A stretch of DNA of 64,000 nt from Antedon mediterranea (Eukaryota > Animalia > Echinodermata): positions 18,228,001-18,292,000 of the forward strand of contig NC_092674.1 in NCBI RefSeq assembly GCF_964355755.1, written 5' to 3'. The position numbers and the translations under genes are program-made. The stretch's first letter is position 1; every line of letters starts with the position of its first letter. Below the pieces are notes generated by a model, which did no database searches, was not told the DNA's origin, and saw nothing but the letters and a program-made list of their open reading frames with translations. This document shows positions 30,420 through 61,526 of this stretch, in pieces.

Positions 30420-30750
30420 TTAGTAATAGGCTAGCCTAGCTAGGCCTACCTAGGCCTAGTAGTAGTAGGCTAGTAGGCCTAGTCTAGGCCTAGGCCTAGG
30501 TTAGTAGTGGTTCTGTAGTAGGCCTAGCCTAGGCCTAGTAGTAGTAATAATAGTAGTAGGCCCCCTAGTAGTAGTAATAATAGTAGTCGTAGTAATAATA
30601 GTAGTAGCAGCCTAGGCCTAGTAGTAGTAGGGAGAGTAGTAGTAGGCCTAGGCTAGTATAGTAGTAGGAGGCTAACTAGGCTACCTAGAGGTAGTACAAA
30701 CAATACATCCATAGGCATAGGCCTACCTAGGCCTAGCTTAGTAGGCCCTA
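30420..30750. repeat. Low-complexity TAGGCCTA / TAGTAG cluster at the start of TPP2 intron 1
   Basis: Dense mosaic of TAGGCCTA, TAGCCTA, TAGGCTA and (TAG)n. Confidence 0.9.
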
Positions 30751-30762
30751 TCTATTGCGAAC

Positions 30763-30927
30763 CTGAAGACCTGGTGCACCAGGATCTACACCTGTATCGA
30801 GAATTGCTATTACTACGCCACGTCCATCATAATGGGGATACTTCGATATAAATAGATGAGCACCGGTTTCCTTTTTTGGTAATAGACCATGGAAAGGGTA
30901 TTCATCTTCTTCAAGAACACACGCCAT
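30763..30927 (-). CDS. TPP2: Tripeptidyl-peptidase II, coding exon 1
   Basis: [23 protein letters not shown]...[23 protein letters not shown], including the subtilase catalytic Asp motif ILDTG. ATG in aaaATGG context (another in-frame ATG at 30945). cag|gttcgc donor. Confidence 0.95.
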
Positions 30928-31329
30928 TTTTGGCACTAATACCATAAAAGATAGGCCTAGCTAGGTAGACTAGCCTCTCCTAGCCCTATAGTATCAGATC
31001 TTTGCTAATATACTAAAGAATATTATACATAAAATGAGCAATCCGCGATTTTTGTATTGGAAATTTGTACCTCTTTTAAGGTGCCCGCCCTCATACGAGC
31101 AGATATGTATACAGAATGAGGACGTACGTTCATAAATCACTCTCTCCAAATAAGGCTTTTGAGAAAATTGAAAGAATTGAGATAGGACGATAGTTGGAGA
31201 GATCAGATTTATTGCCGGACTTATAAATAGGAGTAACGCGCGCTATCTTCATTAGTTAAAACAAGATTACAAATATGGGATAATGGAAAGGAGATCAAAT
31301 TGGCGACATATGGCGACATATTTAATGGG

Positions 31330-38599: not shown

Positions 38600-39445
38600 G
38601 AATCAGTAAATGTAATTGACGTTGAATTACTGGAATTCTCTTCATCTTCATGCAGCTTCGTATGTAGGCAATATCATCTTCTTCTTGCTCATGCACATGC
38701 CATGTGTCTCTCTTTTGGAACCATTCAATGAGAGTTAAGTCGACGGATCATATGTCCGAGGATGTTGTACCCTTTTTTCGTTGTTTAAAATGGTTTCTGG
38801 CGAAATATACTCTGGGGTTCCAACTGTATATAAGTGTTGGTTGAAGCTACACTAAAAGATTTCACCTTTGCCAAGCCAAGATCACAATGCTTAGGTAAGA
38901 AATCTTTTCCGATGAGTATATTTGCTGGCTTTATATTTTGGTGAATAATTATAGAGTTCAACACCTTCCAAAACACATTCCGCAACACTGATTTTCTTAT
39001 TTGGCATATCCACCTCGTCATCATGCAAGTAAATCACGTCTTCCATGTTCTCGCCATCAACAAACTCTGTAACAATGAAGATATACGATGTACCAACAAA
39101 TCTAATGATATTCTTATATTCGATGAGTTGATGAACAGCAGCTTCATTGAAGATTAACTTCTCAGGGCATTTTCCTCGTTTCATACGAATTCGCTTAACA
39201 GCTACCACCATTTCCTTTGTACCTTTAAAAACTTTACCAAAGGAGCCATGATTTATTGCATTTGTGAAGTCACAGGATATCGATAAGCCTTCAATCTCTC
39301 CCGTTCCACAATCTAGCTTTTGATTCACTAGGTTTACCGTTTTAACTTCAGTCGGATTGGTACCTGATTTGACAATTTGGATCGTATTTAGTTTTCTGTT
39401 AATTTCCTCTGGCTCACCGTCATCTAATTGTATGATAGTCTTCAA
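38600..39445 (-). pseudogene. Intronless protein kinase pseudogene
   Basis: GSFGKVFKG, VAVK, NEAAVH, FIVTEFVDG, IIHQNIKPANIL, CDLGLAK, GTPEYISPE, SDI*S..LTLIEWF spread over different frames (at least 3 frameshifts, one stop). Confidence 0.88.
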
Positions 39446-39968
39446 AATGCAGTTATAGTAGCCAGGCTTTTTTTATTTTAAGGACACATCCATTTGAATT
39501 GATTGGTTGATTGTCTTTAAACCACTGGTAAGAAATACCTGGGTGGTTATGATTTCGGCAAACTAGTCCTAAAGTCAAATGTCCTTCATCGATGTCCCAA
39601 ACTTCATCAGGATGATTTAAAATGAAGGGTCTGTGCTTTCAACTTCTGATGATGGAAACTCGTATACACTGCAGTCTGTATTATTACACTGGACGAAGAC
39701 TTTGCTTCCTTCAGAGACTTCACCCACGCTGTACCCATCATTCAATGGATCAGGATTCTCGTAAATGCACTCACTTCTCGAAGCAATTTTCCTTCTTATT
39801 TTATCACTGTAAGACGATTGTATGTCTTTAAAGTACCGAATTACAAGAGGCTGTGATGGCATGACTTCCCCATCCAATACAACATACAGTCCACTATCCG
39901 AAAGCGCATTTGAAGGAGGTTTTGTGACTTGCTGTACAGTTTGAATGCCAAAATCAGGTAGGTCTATT

Positions 39969-42240: not shown

Positions 42241-43039
42241 ACTAGATGGTTCTCGAATACACAGTAATTTCAGCGTAAAAAATGTACGTACCGCAGAACT
42301 ATAGTACATTATCGTTTACAGAAACGAATAAATAGACACGATGATTTATGTAAAATTAGCAGCCTGAGAATTAGGACTTGTCTTAAAAATGAGTCCAATT
42401 TTTTTATTTGAACTCATTTAAACAAACCCAATTTGTGTTTTGTATATAACATTAGAGTTGAGGGATGGGGAAGAGGATGGAAAGAACAATTTTTAAATAT
42501 ATTCTCTATCCACTCAGTAACGAAATATTGTTTTAAATGTTTTATAGGCCTATCAATAATACACTAAACACAGTAAAACATTTACGATTTATAATACTTT
42601 TTTAAAACTGTCCCTGTTATAGTCGATTGAAATAGCAAAGTACATGTAACGATACACCACTACGACGTTTATATTTTTTATAATCATTAATTAATACAAA
42701 AACGTTGAGAAGCAACTGTCAGTAATCTACCCACAGTCACAGTAATAAATGTTCTTTGTATATTTTGTTTATATATCTAACAGTAACCACATTCACAGTA
42801 AGACAATTTCGATTCAAATGGCGACCAAAAATGGCGCTCCGTAGAGAATGCTCCAGTCGTCAGAATGACACTCTAAATATACCTCCAATAATACGACATG
42901 AGGCGGTTATAAATTGGGTATAAAAGTCCATTTTTAACTTTGGACTGTTACCATGGTTACGGAATCGTGAAAATTTGTTACCTAGCATTTTTGGTATCCT
43001 AGCACCATAATCTAGTGAAATCTCACTTTGGCCATTATA

Positions 43040-45338
43040 GACCGGGCGCCCGGAAGATTTATTCATGTGAAAAGATACAAAAGGTTTGATGATGTAGTTA
43101 GGTGCGTATTAGGGCGAGATGCAATATTCGATATTGCTGCCGGGTCACAGCCTGTACATGGGGCCTGTGGGGATCTTAACATAGGGGGGTAAAAATGCAT
43201 TTATTCATGTTAAGCGATACAAGGATAAACTTTATTGGATATCATTCGCAGTGGGCTACTAATGATTACATCACCAATGACAGCAACATTTTAGGGCCAC
43301 GCCCAAATGAGTTTATTCATGTGAAGCGATACAAGGTTGAATCTATTTTTAATGGCAGCAGTACATATTGGGGATGACAAAAACACCAATGACAGCAACT
43401 TTATCCTGTACATAAGCTCAGACAGCAGTCCTAAAGGTCCGCAGATTCCCCCTATTCGGCTATATACTCGGCGCGTATGTCGTCTTATGGCGTTCAGCTG
43501 AGTTAGAAATACGTCATACGGACTCGGACTGACAATAAATACACAGCAGAATGATAAAACAATAAATAAAGAGAGCAGTTGTTTGCTGTACCAAATCATC
43601 AAACATCAAACTCATAGGAACTCGCCCAAAATGGGTTTATCCATTAAGTATGAATCATTTTTTTCTCTCTTTCTCTCTTTTTTGCTCCATTCGTGATCAA
43701 CAATGTCGATAATACAAACACATTTACGATAACGAGTGACTTTTATTTTATAATTGAAATATATCTTTATTTTGGAATAATAAATAACACCAACAAAAAC
43801 ACTTTAAAAAAACACAAATAACCAACAGCAGATTTGTATTTTAGGGTAACATTTTGAACAATCAATATTATATCAAAATCATTATTTCGATCAAAATAAT
43901 ATAATTTAAGAATATTTTTCAGATAAACTAAATAATTACACTCATAATGATTAATTAAAAGTTTGACTTTGGTTCAGTTAAAGTAAAACAATGTGCAGTA
44001 ATCGATACAGTAGTCGATCCATTATGGACAAGTAACGACGTTTAAAATGTTGGCAGATTAAGTTTTTTGTTGGTTTTTATCAGTCTAATTCACATAAAAA
44101 CGGTTACTTTTTTTTAGTAATAGTGTGCAATCGATAGTCTAATCTATACCTTACCAATTCTCTAAGTGATTATGTTGAATTCGAACTATTATTTACTTTA
44201 CTATTATGTTATGTTATGTAAAAAATGTTGCAAATTTAGATTTCGTTGCCTTTTTTCATATAGACATATCACTAGTGTCTAGCGTGTAATTAAAACAATA
44301 TTTAAATCGAGTTATAATAATAATGCACAATAATCGGTACCGGTGTCGATCATTATGAGTGTAATTATTAATTAGTTTATCTGAAAAATATTCTTAAATT
44401 ATATTATTTTGTGTTGTGAAATAATGATTTTGATATAATATTGATTGTTCAAAATGATACCCTAAAATACAAATCTGCTGTTGGTTATTTTAAGTGTTTT
44501 TGTTGGTGTTATTTATTATTCCAAAATAAAGATACATTTCAATTATAAAATAAAAGTCACTCGTTATCGTGAATGTGTTTGTATTATCAACATTGTTGAT
44601 CACGAATGGAGCCTCGGGCATTAGAGCTGGTGTGTACCGAAAAAAAGTGAAAAAAAAACAACATTTTTTCAAAAATGATTAGGCCTACACACTTCATGGA
44701 TAAACCCATTTTGGGCGAGTTCCTAAGAGTTTGATGATTTGGTACAGGAAACAACTGCTCTCTTTACTTATTGTTTTAGCATTCTACTGTGTATTTATTG
44801 TCAGTCCGAGTCCTTATCACGTATTTCTAACTCAGCTGAACGCCATTAGACGACATACGCGCCGAGTATATAGCCGAATAGGGGGAAACTGCGGACCTTT
44901 AGGGCTGCTGTCTGAGCTTATGTACAGGATAAAGTTGCTGTCATTGGTGTTTTTGTCATCCCCAATATGTACTGCTGCCATTAAAAAAGATTCAACCTTG
45001 TATCGCTTCACATGAATAAACCCATTTGGGCGTGGCCCTAAAATGTTGCTGTTTGGCGCCCCGTACAGGATTAAGTTGCTGTCATTGGTGATGTAATCAT
45101 TAGTAGCCCACTGCGAATGATATCCAAAAAAGTTTATCCTTGTATCGCTTCACATAATATAAATAAATGCATTTTTACCTCCCCCCCCCCCCCCTATGTT
45201 ATGATCCCCACAGGCCCTGTGTACAGGCTGTGACCCGGCAGCAATATCGAATATTGCATCTCGCCCTAATACGCACCTAACTACATCATCAAACCTTTTG
45301 TATCTTTTCACATGAATAAATCTTCCGGGCGCCCGGTC
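43040..45338. mobile_element. Foldback-type element with ~0.9-1.0 kb inverted arms and ~400-bp spacer
   Basis: Arms 43040-43951 and 44349-45338 are reverse complements. Termini GACCGGGCGCCCGG. TA flanks both ends. Confidence 0.92.
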
Positions 45339-45949
45339 TATTAAAATCCTACGGAAATACACGAGGACCCTGACTAATATAGGACCTATGGATGAAATTT
45401 TCTTAGGGTATCAGCCTATTGTAATGGAGGAAACACTGGAAAATCTGACCAAAACAAACCTAAGTTTGTTTTCTCATTTCATTTATTTTATGTTCTCATA
45501 TATTGTTGTATATTTTCATGATTGATGATGGATAAAGAATATTTGAATTTAGTATACCAAAAAAAAAAAAGAAGTTCTTTAGGATTGTTAAATTATTAAT
45601 ATTAATTTTAGTTAAAATCACATATACTGATGTAGTATGATGTTTAAGGTTTACTGTGCAATTTCATAACATGATAAGCTTCTTAATTACTATTAGTTAT
45701 AAATTATTATAGTTAGTGATTCCAACAAAAAGGACGAGTAAATAAACAATCTTCTTTATAACATACAGTAATATATAGTCCTACAATCTTTACTTTGATT
45801 TGTTTTTATTGTTTTAACAGTATACTGTAAAGCAATTGTCCTTCATTTACCAGAGTTATTTAAAATTGTTAAACAGTGATTAGTTTAGATTGTAATTATA
45901 ATATTTATTATATATATAATGATCTTGGTGATGAGAGATTTTACTGTGA

Positions 45950-53095: not shown

Positions 53096-53179
53096 CAATT
53101 TCCTTTGTGCTTCTTCAATTTTGCTCTGGTTTTCTAGCATAATTCGTTCTAGCTCTTCACGTTGCTTTCTCTCTTCTTC
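53096..53179 (-). CDS. ARGLU1: ARGLU1 coding exon 3
   Basis: EEERKQREELERIMLENQSKIEEAQRKL; ttctag acceptor, gtaag donor, 84 bp. Confidence 0.95.
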
Positions 53180-54505
53180 CTAGAAATCAGAAAGAAACAA
53201 AGTAAGTAAAGTTGCATAATTTTTTGGTTAAAAAAAGAATATGAACACTTTAAAAATACTGTAATATTCTTTCTAGTACCTGCACTTCTAAAAATAGAAA
53301 CAGAAGAATGAAAACCTGTAGGAAAAACAATATGGTTAAACATCAAACATACTGTACTGTATAAATTGAGTGTGGTTCACTGCATTGTATTTTATAACCT
53401 TCATCAATATGTTATAATGCAAACAAAAAAGAAAACAAAAACAAAATTCAAATAAACAAAATCTATGTTATAATTATTATCATTGTTTTAACTATATAAA
53501 GTTAATTATTATATTTTTCTTATTGGTAATGGTAGTATTATTTACGAAATTTTATTACAATTTTTAAAATATTGAAAAAGGTAAAAAACAAAACAGTTAC
53601 AAAATGCAAGGGCCTGAAATAACCTAAAACAATAACGGTTGGCTTGAGTGTTATTGTCTTCTTTCTGGTCACGATTTCAGACCCTAGAATAATAATGAAC
53701 ACTTACCTAAAATGTTGCACAGGAAGCCTCCTACTTCAGATTTCACATAAATACACTGCTATCCAGCACACTTTTTATATTTTGTTTTATTAAAACAAAA
53801 ACCACAAGTACTGTTTACAGTACAGCTTATATACCACAAACCATTAAACACTGTTTCACACAAATGAACTACCAATATTACATAGGAACACCATAAATAA
53901 TTATTTGTATACCTACAAATTACTATACCTTTTTATTTACATTTCGACGTATAAACAAAAGTCTTATTCTTGAATGAAAAAAAAAAAAAATCAAATATAG
54001 TTTTGGGATAACTTCTCACATGTAATCCAGATAGTATTACATTGACGAAAGGATGGACAAATGATGCTGCTCATCTATCTTCTAATGTTTTCACCCACTG
54101 AAAAATCTTTCAATATAGGTTTATCCATGTTTTTGATATTTTGTCCAAATCCAAAGTTTCTGTGAAATTAATTTCTTCATTGTTCTTCATTGTACCTTAA
54201 AAACATCTGTACTTGAAATTGTCACTTGTGCATTTCCAATAAATATGCTTGCTTTACTCTGTGCTCCTCCCAGGAAAAAACAGGGAGGAGATACAGAAAC
54301 AACTGATGAGACAAACAGATATGTATGTTAATGTTAAACTAGGCGAAGCCAACCAATGATGGGAAGAAAATTCAATGCTGGTTTTAAGAGCCAAATTTTG
54401 TTTTCCCCTTGTCCATTTAAAATTTATATTCAATAATTCTCTTGTTAATTTGTGTCAATTTTTAAAGCATTTAAAACAACTAGAATAACTACAAACAATT
54501 TATAC

Positions 54506-54598
54506 CAGCATTTTTTACTGCCCTGCACTGGAGCTGCCTAGTGGTCAGCCCTGACCAACTCTTGGGTATTACTTCAGACTAAATATTTAAAACATGAT
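54506..54598 (-). promoter_or_regulatory. Candidate ARGLU1 poison/decoy exon in intron 2
   Basis: Acceptor TTTTTTACAG (alternative TTCTTTCCTACAG 17 nt upstream), weak donor CTG|GTATAA, in-frame stop with each of these acceptors, GC-rich core in an AT-rich intron. Same intron as the vertebrate ARGLU1 ultraconserved poison exon. Confidence 0.6.
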
Positions 54599-56528
54599 CT
54601 GTAAAAAACATAGGACTGTAGGAAAGAACTATATAAAAACTGTTTTGCAGTACAACAAAGGTCTAGTACAAAATAACATCTAAATTTTCCAATTATGTTA
54701 CAGTAATAATGTACAGTACCTAAGAAAGGTATTAAAACTTCAATGTATATAATTATAAGACCTTTACAGTACAGATATTATTATTACTGATGCAACATTT
54801 GAATGCATAGACTTGTAAAATCTTGTAGCACCCACATAGAGCTCTGCCTTAGCAATGTTTGCTACGCGTAGTCTATGACATCGAATTTTAGGAAATTAAT
54901 CCCATTTTCAGTAAATGAAAACAAAATCGAGCCAGTTAAGATGAGCACTGTGGTTGATTATCATTTACAATCATTCTAAGTACCAATGTGTGTGTATGAT
55001 ACGTCTGAACTTTAATGTTTATGTTTTGTTTACTACAATTTAATGAACCATCTAGACTTTATTATGTTTATATGCCAATAGGTATTTAAATTTTTGTCTG
55101 AAAATTACAGACTTGTAAAACATAGAAATTGATTTGCAGACGGCAAACATCAGATAAAAGAATGATGTAGGTTATCATACCGTATTTGGCAAATTGTAAA
55201 TGTAAATATTGATTTTTGGTTTCAAAAGAGTACAGTATGTATGAGTAAGAAACTGCTGAGACAACTATTTTCTTGGGTTGAATTATATATTGGGGTATGG
55301 TTATTATCGCGACGGTGTTGCCGAGTTTTGTGTTAAACATTATTACAGGTCTAACCTAGCCCTATATGAACAAACTGCCAAATAAGACCCCAATGGGTAA
55401 ATACCACCAGCAGCTAGCATCAGCTACAACTAAGCAGCCAGGTAGGGAATAATCTCGATTTATTATACGCTAATTTGATAACCTTAATTTAAAAAGAAAA
55501 ATCATTTAAAATACATACATTACTGTGATTGTTTAATACTGAACACAACTCTTATTAGTATAATGTACACACGGATGTGACCAGCATGTCATGAGTGGTG
55601 GTCGAGCACCCCCCGCCCCTGACAGAGGACCAAGTTGTAAATTACTCGGAAACATTATTAATAGTACATATTATTAATAATTTATTAATTGTTTTCTTCG
55701 TGGTGTTTTTTATCTACTCGACGGCGAATATATAAATAGAAATTGACCACGGTAGAGGCATTATGGCACCACACGGTGAACCTCAATGAACTAGTATGTG
55801 GCTTAGGCCAACTTCTTAAATAAAACGTCCAGTCGATCCAGAAATGATGTCGACAAAAAAAGATTGTTAAGATTCTAAATATAGTATCGGAATATCGTTT
55901 ACCTAGAGTTTGTGTCATGACATAAAACGCAATACTCTCTATAAATTAACTGTTCCCATCCACATGTAGCAAATGTTCTTTTTCACTCAAAATTCTGGGT
56001 TAGCTACAGAATACTAGAGCCATCTTCTTTACAGTGACATGTCGTAATAATTGTATACAGTAATTCGCAAAGCCAAGGTAGGATTAATAGCGTAAGCCTA
56101 GGCCGCCGAAACTAAGACTCCACTCCGATGTCGATTCGGCCTGGCCACGATGTCATCTCGTCCGGCTAAATTAGGCTAACAACCAAAACGTGTCGTCTCC
56201 TAGCCTAGGTAGGATTTTTAGGTGCCGCCGATTTTAATTAGTGAACAGTACATTGTTAATTTGCATTGTCCATGCTTTTCCTAAAGGCGATGACAATGGT
56301 GTTTATTAACCCTACAATCGACGCGTTGACAATTATAATAACAATACATCGTAATAAAAGGTTACGAACAATAGGCTACGACCTACATGCGTAAATATAG
56401 TGGTGTTTGGCGACATAAAAATGGTGGTCGGAAATTCCGAGTGGTGGACGGGGCCGACCATCCCTGGTACATGAAAATAATTTAAGATTGTTTCATTTCT
56501 CCCATCGATTTGGTTTGTCATGATATTA

Positions 56529-59527
56529 GGGGTATTGCTAAACACTGCAAACCCCAGCTAACCTCCAAAAAAGCAAACCTCATCAAACCAACTTAAAAGT
56601 TACTGAATTGTGTAGTGTACTACACACCTAATATGTCAATTTGTTTTGCTAACTACTTATTGTTGGGGTAAAACACAAATTTTGGTTAAAAAGTAATTGC
56701 TGATGGTATCCCAATGAAGCGGATTTTCGCGATTTGAACATGTTCGTGAAATTTCAAAAAGTGACATGTCTTTTGAAGTTTAAAAAATATACTATTTCTT
56801 ACAGTATGTAGCCATGTGAATAAAACTTACTGTATATGTCTAGAAGGATCTTGTTTAAGGGTTTATTTATATATATTTTTTATCTATGCTTATTAAATAT
56901 TTTAATAGAAAACGCGAGTTAAAAAGGAGGTACAAAAGCCGGCGAGCCAAAATCCGCACGCTAAAAATAACTTGGGAAAACACCTACCCATTTTCAAAAC
57001 ACAATCGCACGGTGGCCATAATAGGTGGTGGAGTAATTTTTGTTGCATGTTATCAGGCTTTAAATACTTCTTATTATATGTCAATCGGTTATTATTATTA
57101 TTATGTACATCCGGCTCAAATGTCAATTTTTCCGATAAAAATTAAATTTTTTAGTCTTTCTCATTATCAAAATCTGGCTAATTTAGTATTGAATTGAAGC
57201 GTTAAATTATGGTTGGATACTCCCGCAGTGGACTGTTCCATTTTCGAAACTAGTCTTCCCTGCACGAGATTGACGAGTTCAAATCTAGTTATTATTATTA
57301 TTAGTTGGCCTTGTTCATTGAGGTGCACCTGTGTTGCATCGTATATCTACATTAAATCGTGGGAAATTTCTATTTCAATATTCGCTGTTGAGTAGGTAAA
57401 CACGCACGAAGGAAACAAGTACGATTAAAAAATATTATATATTTTTTAGTAATTTACAACTTGGTCCCCCGCCAGTCAAAATTAACACATTCATTATGAC
57501 ACCTTGTTACTTAACTAAGAACATCGCAGGGTTATTTATTAAGGTTACGAACTTATTTATTGAAGTTCAGAACGTAGCTCATTGAAAGTTGTTTATTGAG
57601 GTTACGAAGCCAAACAATGGAACCTACGAAGCCAACAACGTAGCCTATGTTCTATCTACGAAGCTACTGTACTTCGTAGGAGAAGTTGCAGTATTTTCTT
57701 TCTGTACTGTATGCGTATTTCATTTAAACGGGCATGACGCAATTTTAAAATGAAACATCGTTCATTACATTAGTAAATAAAACATAGTTCAGACAGATCC
57801 ATGCATGATACACACACGTGGGTACAGCAGCTACATGGCGAAAACTGTCGTATCAAGCTGTCACCTCATATATTTATCCCCCGTTTGGAAATACTGTACT
57901 ATTCACAAAGTGACATTAATTCACATTTTCACGCATGCACAGTACATCGTATTTAACGCTTGTACACAGTATAGATTATCATACAGTACTATTTACTAGC
58001 TAGACGTACAGTACCACTTATTTTAAAATTTTGCATTTTTTGGCTTTTATATGAAATAGTAAATAGAGATATTAATACTGTCAAAATATTATATATGAGG
58101 ATACTATAGACCGCCACTCGCTTGCGATCAATTAGGTCTAGCATCAGCTAAATATTATATATGAGGATACTATAGACCGCCACTCGCTTGCGATCAATTA
58201 GGTCTAGCATCAGCTAAATATTATATATGAGGATACTATAGACCGCCACTCGCTTGCGATCAATTAGGTCTAGCATCAGCTAAATATTATATATGAGGAT
58301 ACTATAGACCGCCACTCGCTTGCGATCAATTAGGTCTAGCATCAGCTAAATTTCGGTTATTTTTACAATTTGCTCATGTTTTTTGTTGTGAACTGCTGAT
58401 CGGTCAAACTTTAATATATAATCATTGCGCTAAAAGCCCCAACCCTGTAAATGTTATTTCACTTTCAAATCTACGAAAACCGTTATTAGATGTTTTGGCC
58501 AGGCCTAGTAGTTATTATACAGTGATGTGATGTTGTTTGCTGCGAAAGGGGGTTCCCAGATTTGTTTGCAAGAAAAGTCGGAGATAATAGAAAACGCGAT
58601 GTTTTGTTTGAAGTGGCAAGACAAAGGGGGAAACCGTTTGCATGACACAAACACGCTACAACAACTTTGACTCTGTTTGGAAAGGCGTGTCGGGTTGAAT
58701 TCAGTTTCTCAACGTTTCGATAAATATGCTTTGATCGTCCTCATGAAACTCAACAGTTCTTTTCAGAACTAATATACATGGTGTACCGCAAACTTATATA
58801 AACATTTGATTTAGCCATGCAAACGTTCAAACAATAAATTTAAATAACTTTTTAATTGAAACAAAAAAAACAACAAGAAAACTTCCTTTTTAGTAATATA
58901 TAGTTGCATTATTTGTTTATACCCAATTTCTTGACTTTAAATTCATTGTATGTTTTAAAAACCAATTACATTTATTGCGAGTGACAGTAATTTGAGTGAC
59001 GGAACTTTTGTGTTAAAATGTCAATTATATTTAAAAAACTTAAGTAAGTTGAATTTTTTTATTATCCTATATTGATAAAGTATAGCAATTTTAAGATCCT
59101 TTGATTCAATTATTTTTAGTTTGAGGACACGTCCATGTGGGCGTGACCGTCGTGTGCACGTTCACTCAATCTAAAAGTCCTTATTAAGACAGGAATTATG
59201 AAAATACTGTTTAAAGAAAATTTTCTAAAAGCAAAAACCTAACATAAATCATAAAAAGTACATCTAATAAACATTTACTGTAACTAAAATATTTTAGTAT
59301 TTTTTTTTATTTAAAAAAAATATAGGTAATATTCAAATGTAATGTCCATGACATAAAATCACTGCACTTTCTTTCAATCTTTGACATGAAATAAATATAT
59401 TTCGAAGTACGGTATCAATAATTTTTTTTATTCATATAACTCAATGTATCTATTTTCTGAAAATGTCGGTGTTGAAAACAATTTTTAACATTTTTTAACC
59501 GATGTCGCAATTACTGTGGAATACCCC
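56529..59527. mobile_element. Probable non-autonomous DNA transposon (~3 kb) in ARGLU1 intron 2
   Basis: Short inverted ends GGGGTATT(G/C)C flanked by TA (or ATT); contains a dispersed-repeat copy and a 66-bp array. Confidence 0.45.
58084..58350. repeat. 66-bp tandem repeat, 4 identical copies
   Basis: Unit AAATATTATATATGAGGATACTATAGACCGCCACTCGCTTGCGATCAATTAGGTCTAGCATCAGCT. Confidence 0.97.
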
Positions 59528-59754
59528 TATTGGGCATACTAACTGTACATTTGTTGATATTTAAACATTGCATTATCATGGATCTAACTTGTTTAGGCGA
59601 TGAGTTAATTAAAATGCAACCTGTACGTGCAGACCACTTTACAAAGTTGCAATGCAGTATCTGTACTGTAAAGAAAAAAAGGTTTATTGTAAGGAAGAGT
59701 TAAATAAGGAAGAGTTGGTCAGAGCCGCCAAAAATCCACTGAAAACCTTATTAC

Positions 59755-59980
59755 CTCTTTTTTTTTCTGAGCTGCTAATTCTTCTTGTCGCTTTTTTTCC
59801 ATTTCTTCCATCATTATTCTTTCCATTTCCAGTTTAGCTTCTTCAACCCGCCTTAGAACCTCTGCCTCAATATCATCTTTTCTTTTCTCAAGCTCTTCTT
59901 GTACTCGCTTCTCAACCATTTCCTCAACTCGGCGTGCTACCTCTTCCTCAATTAGTTTTGCTTCCATCTCTTGTTGACGA
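59755..59980 (-). CDS. ARGLU1: ARGLU1 coding exon 2
   Basis: RQQEMEAKLIEEEVARRVEEMVEKRVQEELEKRKDDIEAEVLRRVEEAK...AAQKKKE; ttttaag acceptor, gtaata donor, 226 bp. Confidence 0.95.
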
Positions 59981-60301: not shown

Positions 60302-61526
60302 CAGGGATGTCACCACGCTGGTCGGCCCCGACCAGCACTCAACATTTCCGACCAGGATTCACAGGCTGCCGACCACCACTATTATTTATTAATAATTACG
60401 ATATTTATATTAGGCCTAGGCCTAACTAAAATTCGTACTAAAACATTTTACCTAGCACATCGTTAATAACAGACAAGCTAGCCTCATATAGATAAGACAA
60501 AAGACTACAGCAAATGTTTCCGTGGTTACGTACGTTACTTTATTTGTAACACAATACCAGGCCTACTCTGCCCTGGTATTCATTGTTACAGCTTGTGAGT
60601 CATGGCGAACAACAACGTGCTACGCAGCTAGCACAGTGTACAAGTTTAAAGTTCACATAGCGACCATTCAAGCGTTTTATTTTGCACAGATTAAAAATAC
60701 AAACAAGTACGCAGTAATTAAAAAAATGTACAACTACATAGACCTAAACAAAATCATTTTTAATTGCTGAATGTTTTGTCACCCTGCTTTAATTATATTA
60801 TGTTACTAGGTAGTTTTACATTTTTGTACTCTACGAACTATTAAAAAAAAATAAAAAAACATGCGCATGGTTCAGCAGTGAGACCGGGCAAGTTCGTTCG
60901 TTTATGATCGCCGAGCATGGTACAATAATTACACGTCCCTGGGATAACTTCAGGTTGCTGAACTTCAGTTAACCCATAAACACGTGTCTGTTCTTGCCGG
61001 CCATGCACTACATGCTTGCCGCACAGTTGTGAAACAAAAAATCCGGAATTCACGAATACGCTCAAAAACTCTCGCGCAAAAGAACACGAACATTATATCG
61101 AGCAACAAGTAGTAAGGTCTAGGCTAATAATTTATCTACAGTATTTGATTGGGGATTAGGCCTAAATAAGGAAGCGCCAGTTTTTGTGGAATTCAGATTT
61201 TGGGGCATCTATCTAAGCCTTGGCTAGGCCTAGTGGTCGTAGTGTCTACAAGGCTAGGCCTAAGCCTGACGCGATCTATTGCTATTCATTTCGTAAGCGT
61301 TTTTTTGTTTTCGCGAATAATAACGGCGACTCCCCGGTGGTACAAGGTTAGGCCTAGACCTGACGCAATTTGTTGTTATTTATTTTCATAATTCTTTATG
61401 TTTCGCTAAAATAACGACAAAACCCCCCCCCCCCCGGGATGAACACCGGGGTACACCCCCGGGGTACACCCCCGGGGGGGGGGTTATTTTAGCGACCGGC
61501 ACTCCAAAAAGCTGGTGACATCCCTG
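60302..61526. mobile_element. hAT-like non-autonomous element with 9-bp TSD
   Basis: 14-bp TIR CAGGGATGTCACCA; exact CCATAGTAT at 60293-60301 and 61527-61535. Confidence 0.85.

Follow-up and report, generated by a model that had tools for sequence, protein, structure and literature searches.

In vertebrates, intron 2 of ARGLU1 is retained by way of a decoy exon: as set out in those sections of two studies that concern this intron, it is a detained intron that holds an ultraconserved element and a 58-nucleotide (nt) exon acting as a decoy and as a target of nonsense-mediated decay (PMC5389617; PMC6097662). The same sections describe the element and the competition between splice sites, not a donor-proximal RNA stem, and the deletions they report are those of the ultraconserved element and of one control region (PMC5389617; PMC6097662). 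Here we analyse a 64,000-nt stretch of the Antedon mediterranea genome (contig NC_092674.1, positions 18,228,001 to 18,292,000; hereafter the window), in which the equivalent intron carries an 18-bp complementarity, helix 1, whose arms both lie inside intron 2 about 5.1 kb apart, the proximal one close to the exon 2 donor, and which is likely homologous to a stem predicted in ARGLU1 of other animals. The exon upstream of this intron is identified as ARGLU1 by a PF15346 match (E 6e-18); exon 1 was not located in the window, and exon and intron numbers are those of the vertebrate gene. Exon boundaries agree with those of a mammal-type locus, L005, which points to an orthologous gene and intron position. 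Besides the gene, the intron position and the L005 exon sizes, the window resembles vertebrate ARGLU1 in its unspliced intron 2 contigs and in an internal alternative acceptor (54302, present in one of two RNA-like runs) that leads to a premature stop and is followed by a common 10-mer; it differs in that the isoform runs from this acceptor straight into exon 3, no donor junction downstream of 54302 being seen in the RNA-like contigs described below.

Long-range intronic helices near splice sites, with a second helix nested inside, are also a feature of the pairs of conserved complementary regions (PCCRs), or RNA bridges, of PMC8052449, and helix 1 shows the stable distant complementarity of this type (18 bp, -30.7 kcal/mol, 5.1 kb apart). 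The catalogues, as presented in the portion of that source used here, rest on human or vertebrate conservation, whereas the stem discussed below is traced across vertebrates and invertebrates, from sequence alone. Poison-exon control of BRD2 and BRD3 (PMC10789245) likewise concerns genes under unproductive splicing control, but the excerpted description places the BRD2 pair in the introns flanking the poison exon, whereas both arms in the window lie upstream of acceptor 54302; loop-out of an exon in the BRD2 manner does not apply, as the arms flank the exon neither in the window (54302) nor in L005 (58-nt exon). A zipper stem (PMC12350175), like helix 1, starts more than 10 nt after the donor and shortens the path to a downstream acceptor, but the limit given in the available part of that paper is 85 nt from donor through stem to branch point, against a linker of ~240 nt to the likely decoy branch region and a loop of 5 kb in the window; with helix 1 closed, 270 nt still separate the donor from the alternative acceptor, which places it outside the zipper-stem class. 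Our literature search found no description of an RNA stem in ARGLU1 intron 2, and ARGLU1 appears in none of five supplementary files of PMC8052449 and one of PMC10691357; because genome-wide pairing catalogues may contain the human pair, novelty is limited to the description and to the depth of conservation.

A predicted donor-proximal stem across ARGLU1 loci

A metagenome scan returned 30 loci with ARGLU1 exon 2, of which four (L001, L010, L016, L018) were dropped for having no GT intron after that exon; the intron is complete in 23 of the others and partial in three (L004, L008, L012). Scans of viral and prokaryote collections gave no further ARGLU1 loci. L005 is called mammal-type because its splice sites match Table 1 of PMC5389617, and L004 fish-type because it resembles a named fish protein. 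The window's intron aligns with none of the introns of the other loci.

A stem with homologous arms is common to L005, L004 and the invertebrate loci L006, L007 and L009. The 5' arm falls within intron positions +30 to +47 in the three invertebrate loci, with a partner 0.5-0.75 kb downstream; the same 5' motif stands at +30 in L005, where it is paired with +255 to +275; and in L004 the 5' arm is shifted to +175, its partner at +715 (-31.7 kcal/mol, reached by 0 of 300 shuffles) having been sought only after the 5' arm had been spotted. The best intron matches between L004 and L005 are the first 21 nt, which are identical in the two, and both arms. A C-rich/G-rich self-folding insert separates these 21 nt from the 5' arm in L004. 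When a profile of 12 positions is built from L004 and L005 alone, it ranks both arms first in each invertebrate locus, out of 1,807 (L006), 2,029 (L007) and 1,736 (L009) positions. Of the 90 cells formed by 18 columns and five sequences, 76 pair, and double changes occur in 10 of the columns; compensatory changes, for which the first-pass annotation had proposed to test related species, are present among these loci. The 5' motif is in addition compatible with 32 of 121 distinct exon 2 read-through peptides, which are not phylogenetically independent, at +21 to +45 (shuffled mean 3.4, maximum 9), while further downstream the corresponding counts are 1/112, 0/90 and 3/73.

Helix 1 itself comprises 18 ungapped pairs, 16 of them Watson-Crick (13 contiguous) and two G-U on the transcribed strand, and it lengthens to 21 bp via a 1-nt bulge. 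This is the complementarity that the first-pass annotation had described, including the CTGAC motif and the in-frame TGA within the proximal arm; only its intron offset of 27-44 needs correction, to +28 to +45. None of 400 dinucleotide shuffles reaches -30.7 kcal/mol (mean -15.3, best -23.4), so that the duplex withstands the shuffle check suggested at the time, and the concern that the 18-mer might be a dispersed repeat finds no support in the window or in contig depth: no third copy with three or fewer mismatches occurs in the window, and the distal arm is single-copy by contig depth. Predicted pairing probabilities, with both regions present, are 0.84-1.0, and an Rfam search gave two matches at chance level only.

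With its start at +28, against +30 to +37 for the arms of other loci, helix 1 aligns in register with the L005 stem (identity 10/18 and 12/18 in the two arms), the differences comprising five double changes, two single changes (the window's G-U pairs, which are Watson-Crick in L005) and one broken pair. When shuffled base pairs of the window's helix are scored against stem profiles, its resemblance to the vertebrate profile has P values of 0.009 and 0.04 (0.004-0.015 in an earlier version without L004). We regard the proximal arm as likely to share ancestry, after divergence, with the conserved 5' arm of the other loci, helix 1 as a whole as likely homologous to the conserved stem and, judging from the letters, as probably a long-range pairing under selection in a regulated ARGLU1 intron.

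A second helix of 17 bp (helix 2, -22.7 kcal/mol), absent from the first-pass annotation, is nested in helix 1, and its proximal arm covers a pyrimidine tract with two candidate YAG acceptors. Neither helix 1 nor the nested pair is reached in any of the 400 shuffles; the core 7-mer of helix 2 occurs 72 times in the window where 11.5 occurrences are expected, a 6-fold excess.

Other structures occur among the remaining introns. A different helix of 18-19 bp begins at about +45 in L013-L015; its changes preserve pairing, and it is reached by 4, 0 and 0 of 200 shuffles after a post hoc choice. In L017 and L019 a 13-14-bp helix between about +190 and about +750 is kept with single-side changes and is not significant. 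A G-U-rich duplex of L005, +46 to +88 with +2132 to +2177, would enclose the alternative exon (1/100 shuffles; one sequence). Eight loci of one clade (L021-L025, L028-L030) share a strongly conserved block of about 600 nt in intron 2 that ends in an invariant donor-like site and is probably the decoy element of that clade. The exon 2 equivalent of L026 is interrupted by an extra intron.

Intron retention, a candidate decoy acceptor and the proposed looping of the intron

Five runs from one organism cover the region, and two of them, X1 (from another study) and X5, are judged RNA-like because exon 2-3 and exon 3-4 splice joints are present. Each contains a contig in which intron 2 continues unspliced into exon 3; the depth of unique intron 3 contigs is far lower (2-5 against 52-84 in X1; 8-17 against about 400 in X5), contig depth being a rough measure and these results coming from assembled contigs. 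Together the intron 2 contigs and the low intron 3 depth fit retention of intron 2. Drosophila Arglu1, according to what Chan and Pek are said to have reported in 2022, yields a stable intronic RNA from the orthologous intron through premature cleavage within it.

X1 also holds a 62-nt contig of depth 35 that joins the end of exon 2 to 54302, after CAG, the normal junction having a depth of 124; the upstream depth of 52 and the junction depth of 35 together match the 84 found downstream. The first-pass annotation had set a candidate poison exon over the distal arm of helix 1, but the only alternative junction seen enters 54302, 244 nt beyond that arm, and the X1 and X5 contigs, which drop rare variants, show no joint or loose end at candidate sites around the arm itself. 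Read-through from 54302 meets a stop after 26 codons, at 54224-54222. The first 45 nt after the acceptor fold as a hairpin (-20.9 kcal/mol), and a 10-mer within the first 50 nt recurs in L005's 58-nt alternative exon, a likeness equalled by 5 of 2,558 control segments; beyond this one 10-mer, the surroundings of the window's alternative acceptor gave no significant alignment to distant loci. Enclosed in this same hairpin (54298-54257, minus strand) is a pyrimidine tract on which a second acceptor near 54260 could draw. Although the distal arms of both helices are unchanged in X1, this identity is uninformative because the whole 2-kb stretch differs by two substitutions only.

The account that we lean towards, by a modest preference, is that the conserved donor-proximal stem puts the first part of intron 2 into a loop, and so favours the decoy acceptor or retention. 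With helix 1 closed, the initial 5.1 kb of intron 2 would form a loop and the path from donor to decoy would shrink from 5,452 to 270 nt, and the stem would thereby present the exon 2 donor to acceptor 54302. The closed intron would measure 1,393 nt instead of 6,575, and the 23 other complete introns span 911-3,134 nt. Wherever the alternative exon can be located in a locus, the 3' arm precedes it, and the stem would accordingly bridge donor and decoy, not hide the exon. The conserved stem sequence may also be bound by protein beside U1; the fly ARGLU1 homolog associates with U1-70K, according to the relevant lines of PMC5389617. Here we infer that pairing takes place in cells, that helix 1 derives from the conserved stem and that the stem influences the choice of splice site. 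Within the first-pass interpretation, a probably selected pairing in a regulated intron finds support, through the stem with compensatory changes in other animals and the retention of the intron; the conformational switch and the exon at the distal arm do not.

More tentatively, and with the balance tilted somewhat against it, the stem could be older than the split of vertebrates from several invertebrate lineages and could be the missing cis-element of ARGLU1 self-regulation, perhaps read beside the U1 small nuclear ribonucleoprotein, having been kept through compensatory change while the spacing of its arms ranged from 0.2 to 5.1 kb.

Weighing the readings of helix 1

Several results weigh against a conserved stem that bridges donor and decoy. 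The homologous stem was found in five of the 26 intron-bearing loci, and a clear equivalent is absent from L002, L003, L011, L012, L017, L019, L020, L026 and L027. When the first 100 nt of the intron were scanned without bias, only the window (0/60 shuffles) and L005 (1/100) were significant, L005 through a G-U-rich duplex different from the conserved stem; L007 and L009 were equalled by 19 and 35 of 100 shuffles, and none of the 24 other introns was significant for the conserved stem by itself. The core of the stem is a CATG palindrome, and its complementarity is inflated for that reason. A pairing of intron positions +3 to +50 with the conserved block in the eight-locus clade was reached by 4/300 shuffles in one test and was not distinct in another; the duplex of L025, though significant, is loose and not common to its clade. 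The intron start of L005 folds as a whole region no better than shuffles (z -0.45), and in its minimum-energy structure the conserved stem is not formed in full.

The window's own kinship to the stem is also only moderate (P 0.009-0.55 overall), in distinction to the compensatory change among the five other loci: its P values are 0.04 and 0.16 when all loci make up the profile and 0.54-0.55 when the invertebrates do, the vertebrate profile places its arms 5th to 33rd of about 6,560, and the kinship was found post hoc, with the alignment set with the window in view. The 54302 junction is a single contig from one of the two RNA-like runs, X5 having none, and it carries an extra A: near 54304 it reads ten A's, against nine in the window and in the normal junction, which may reflect slippage or a frameshift allele. 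In L005, moreover, about 1.6 kb separate the 3' arm from the alternative exon downstream of it, so not every locus would have donor and decoy bridged at close range.

It is unlikely, though a reading to be taken seriously, that the helix is instead selected for ordinary splicing, in that it would compact an intron that has expanded and, together with helix 2, conceal cryptic signals within the first 100 nt (YAG acceptors at +88 and +93, AATAAA at +67, CTGAC at +33); breaking the helix would then lower productive splicing. Helix 2 does cover both YAGs, whose pyrimidine counts of 14/20 and 15/20 are reached by 12 and 5 of 179 intron YAGs, the two-segment fold pairs the AATAAA too, and the closed intron would be of typical length; within the excerpts used here, conserved complementary regions tend to obstruct cryptic sites (PMC8052449) and zipper stems in yeast can aid splicing (PMC12350175). 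However, AATAAA is common in such AT-rich DNA, with 13 in the looped part, the stem is present in short introns whose arms are only 0.2-0.75 kb apart, and the stem sequence, not pairing alone, is kept between vertebrates and invertebrates, which exceeds the needs of compaction.

We consider it rather improbable that the arms are neutral, left over from a DNA transposon end or from an old inverted duplication, or else matched by chance, with a coincidental likeness to the stem of other animals. This explanation draws on the abundance of comparable structures: 28 of 764 real 150-nt window segments, that of helix 1 included, have an equally strong partner within 6.4 kb, the others being inverted repeats or a recurring palindromic motif. 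Shuffles are too lenient a null here because the window is full of terminal inverted repeats, and on its own the window therefore proves little. Both arms of helix 1 also resemble the end of a nearby transposon; the distal arm is, training copies aside, the best match of a terminal-repeat element profile (60302-61526, 56389-56465; E 0.16), and two CpG-type transitions separate the element's hairpin from the distal hairpin. The element at 60302-61526 lies in intron 1 and has 14-bp terminal inverted repeats. The first-pass annotation had taken the presence of G-U pairs on the sense strand only as a sign of selection on RNA, an argument that we abandon: three sense-strand G-U pairs also occur in an inverted repeat of transposon origin within this intron, and the asymmetry is for this reason not diagnostic. 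Against a transposon origin, the match to the element's end falls short of significance, being equalled by 4 of 25 shuffled queries, the two arms do not align continuously, and the distal region is no multi-copy element with a target-site duplication, being single-copy in DNA-like runs (contig depth 282-293 over 53576-54819, where neighbouring elements reach depths of thousands to over a million) and showing no such duplication by eye, although an old relic of low copy number would be compatible with these depths. A relic would also leave unexplained the position and register that helix 1 has in common with the vertebrate stem.

The proximal arm has an alternative partner in intron 1 (-32.2 kcal/mol), the end of the element at 60302-61526; this pairing would loop out exon 2, and the element end is itself a palindromic hairpin. 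That partner, together with a local hairpin at 54557-54542 (given one position off, as 54558-54543, in the first-pass annotation) that excludes the long-range duplex and has a probability of about 0.4 when the distal region is folded alone, and with acceptor-like sites at 54615, 54598 and 54578 (the first two leading to in-frame stops) and donor-like sites at 54518 and 54505 that flank the distal arm, would suit the annotation's original model, in which a distal arm within a poison exon toggles between hairpin and duplex to set splicing, retention or poison-exon use, but we judge it very unlikely: the hairpin is worth only -6.5 kcal/mol against -36.5 for the duplex (30 kcal/mol weaker), its probability falls to 0 once both arms are present, which makes a thermodynamic switch unlikely, long-range pairing has a net gain of about 22 kcal/mol (16 after a loop penalty of 5.5), no hairpin is evident in the relatives' homologous arms, resemblances of the distal region to conserved blocks of other clades and species are not significant, and the junction seen is 54302, whose sequence shares its 10-mer with the mammal-type alternative exon.

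Features of the window and possible meaning of the stem

The coordinates of the locus are collected in the table. The repeat-rich middle of intron 2 includes a 170-bp inverted repeat pair (55619-55794 / 57310-57475) and a 66-bp tandem array (58084-58351), and the window as a whole has 34% G+C with CpG not depleted. Elsewhere it holds a reverse transcriptase frame (583-2709), a protein kinase fragment (38891-39472), a near-perfect inverted repeat of 2.3 kb (43037-45341) and, at 30748-30960 (-), an exon without Pfam match whose translation resembles the start of tripeptidyl peptidase II.

Table. Window coordinates of the ARGLU1 exons, intron 2 and the predicted RNA structures within it.
Feature	Coordinates	Strand	Basis or content
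ARGLU1 exon 2 equivalent, 226 nt, donor GAG/GTAATA	59755..59980	-	PF15346; end joined to exon 3 in X1, X5
Intron 2 equivalent, 6,575 nt, GT-AG	53180..59754	-	3' part unspliced and contiguous with exon 3 in both RNA-like runs
ARGLU1 exon 3 equivalent, 84 nt	53096..53179	-	Exon model; RNA-like contigs
Last coding exon, through stop codon	48665..48826	-	Exon 3-4 joint in X1, X5
Helix 1 proximal arm, intron +28 to +45, extends to 59730	59710..59727	-	Holds read-through TGA and CTGAC motif
Helix 1 distal arm, extends to 54542	54546..54563	-	Single-copy by contig depth, DNA-like runs
Nested helix 2 proximal arm, 17 bp	59658..59674	-	Covers pyrimidine tract with two candidate YAG acceptors, +88 and +93
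Nested helix 2 distal arm	54761..54777	-	Complementarity
Local 6-bp hairpin overlapping distal arm, -6.5 kcal/mol	54542..54557	-	Predicted only without proximal arm
Alternative (decoy) acceptor 54302 and following sequence	54258..54302	-	62-nt X1 junction contig
Intron middle, repeat-rich, inside would-be helix 1 loop	55131..58413	.	Dispersed repeats, inverted repeat pair, tandem array

ARGLU1 serves as a model of intron detention and of decoy exons, and its published control, in the parts of the vertebrate studies drawn on here, is mapped to the ultraconserved element alone. If the bridging of donor and decoy is true, the stem would be a second cis-element beside the ultraconserved element and an unusually old long-range intronic structure common to vertebrates and invertebrates. 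It would allow a direct test of donor handover to the decoy acceptor, and would be a site at which antisense agents could tune ARGLU1 levels. The window, for its part, shows how such a stem could absorb a repeat-rich expansion of about 5 kb while leaving the effective length of the intron unchanged.

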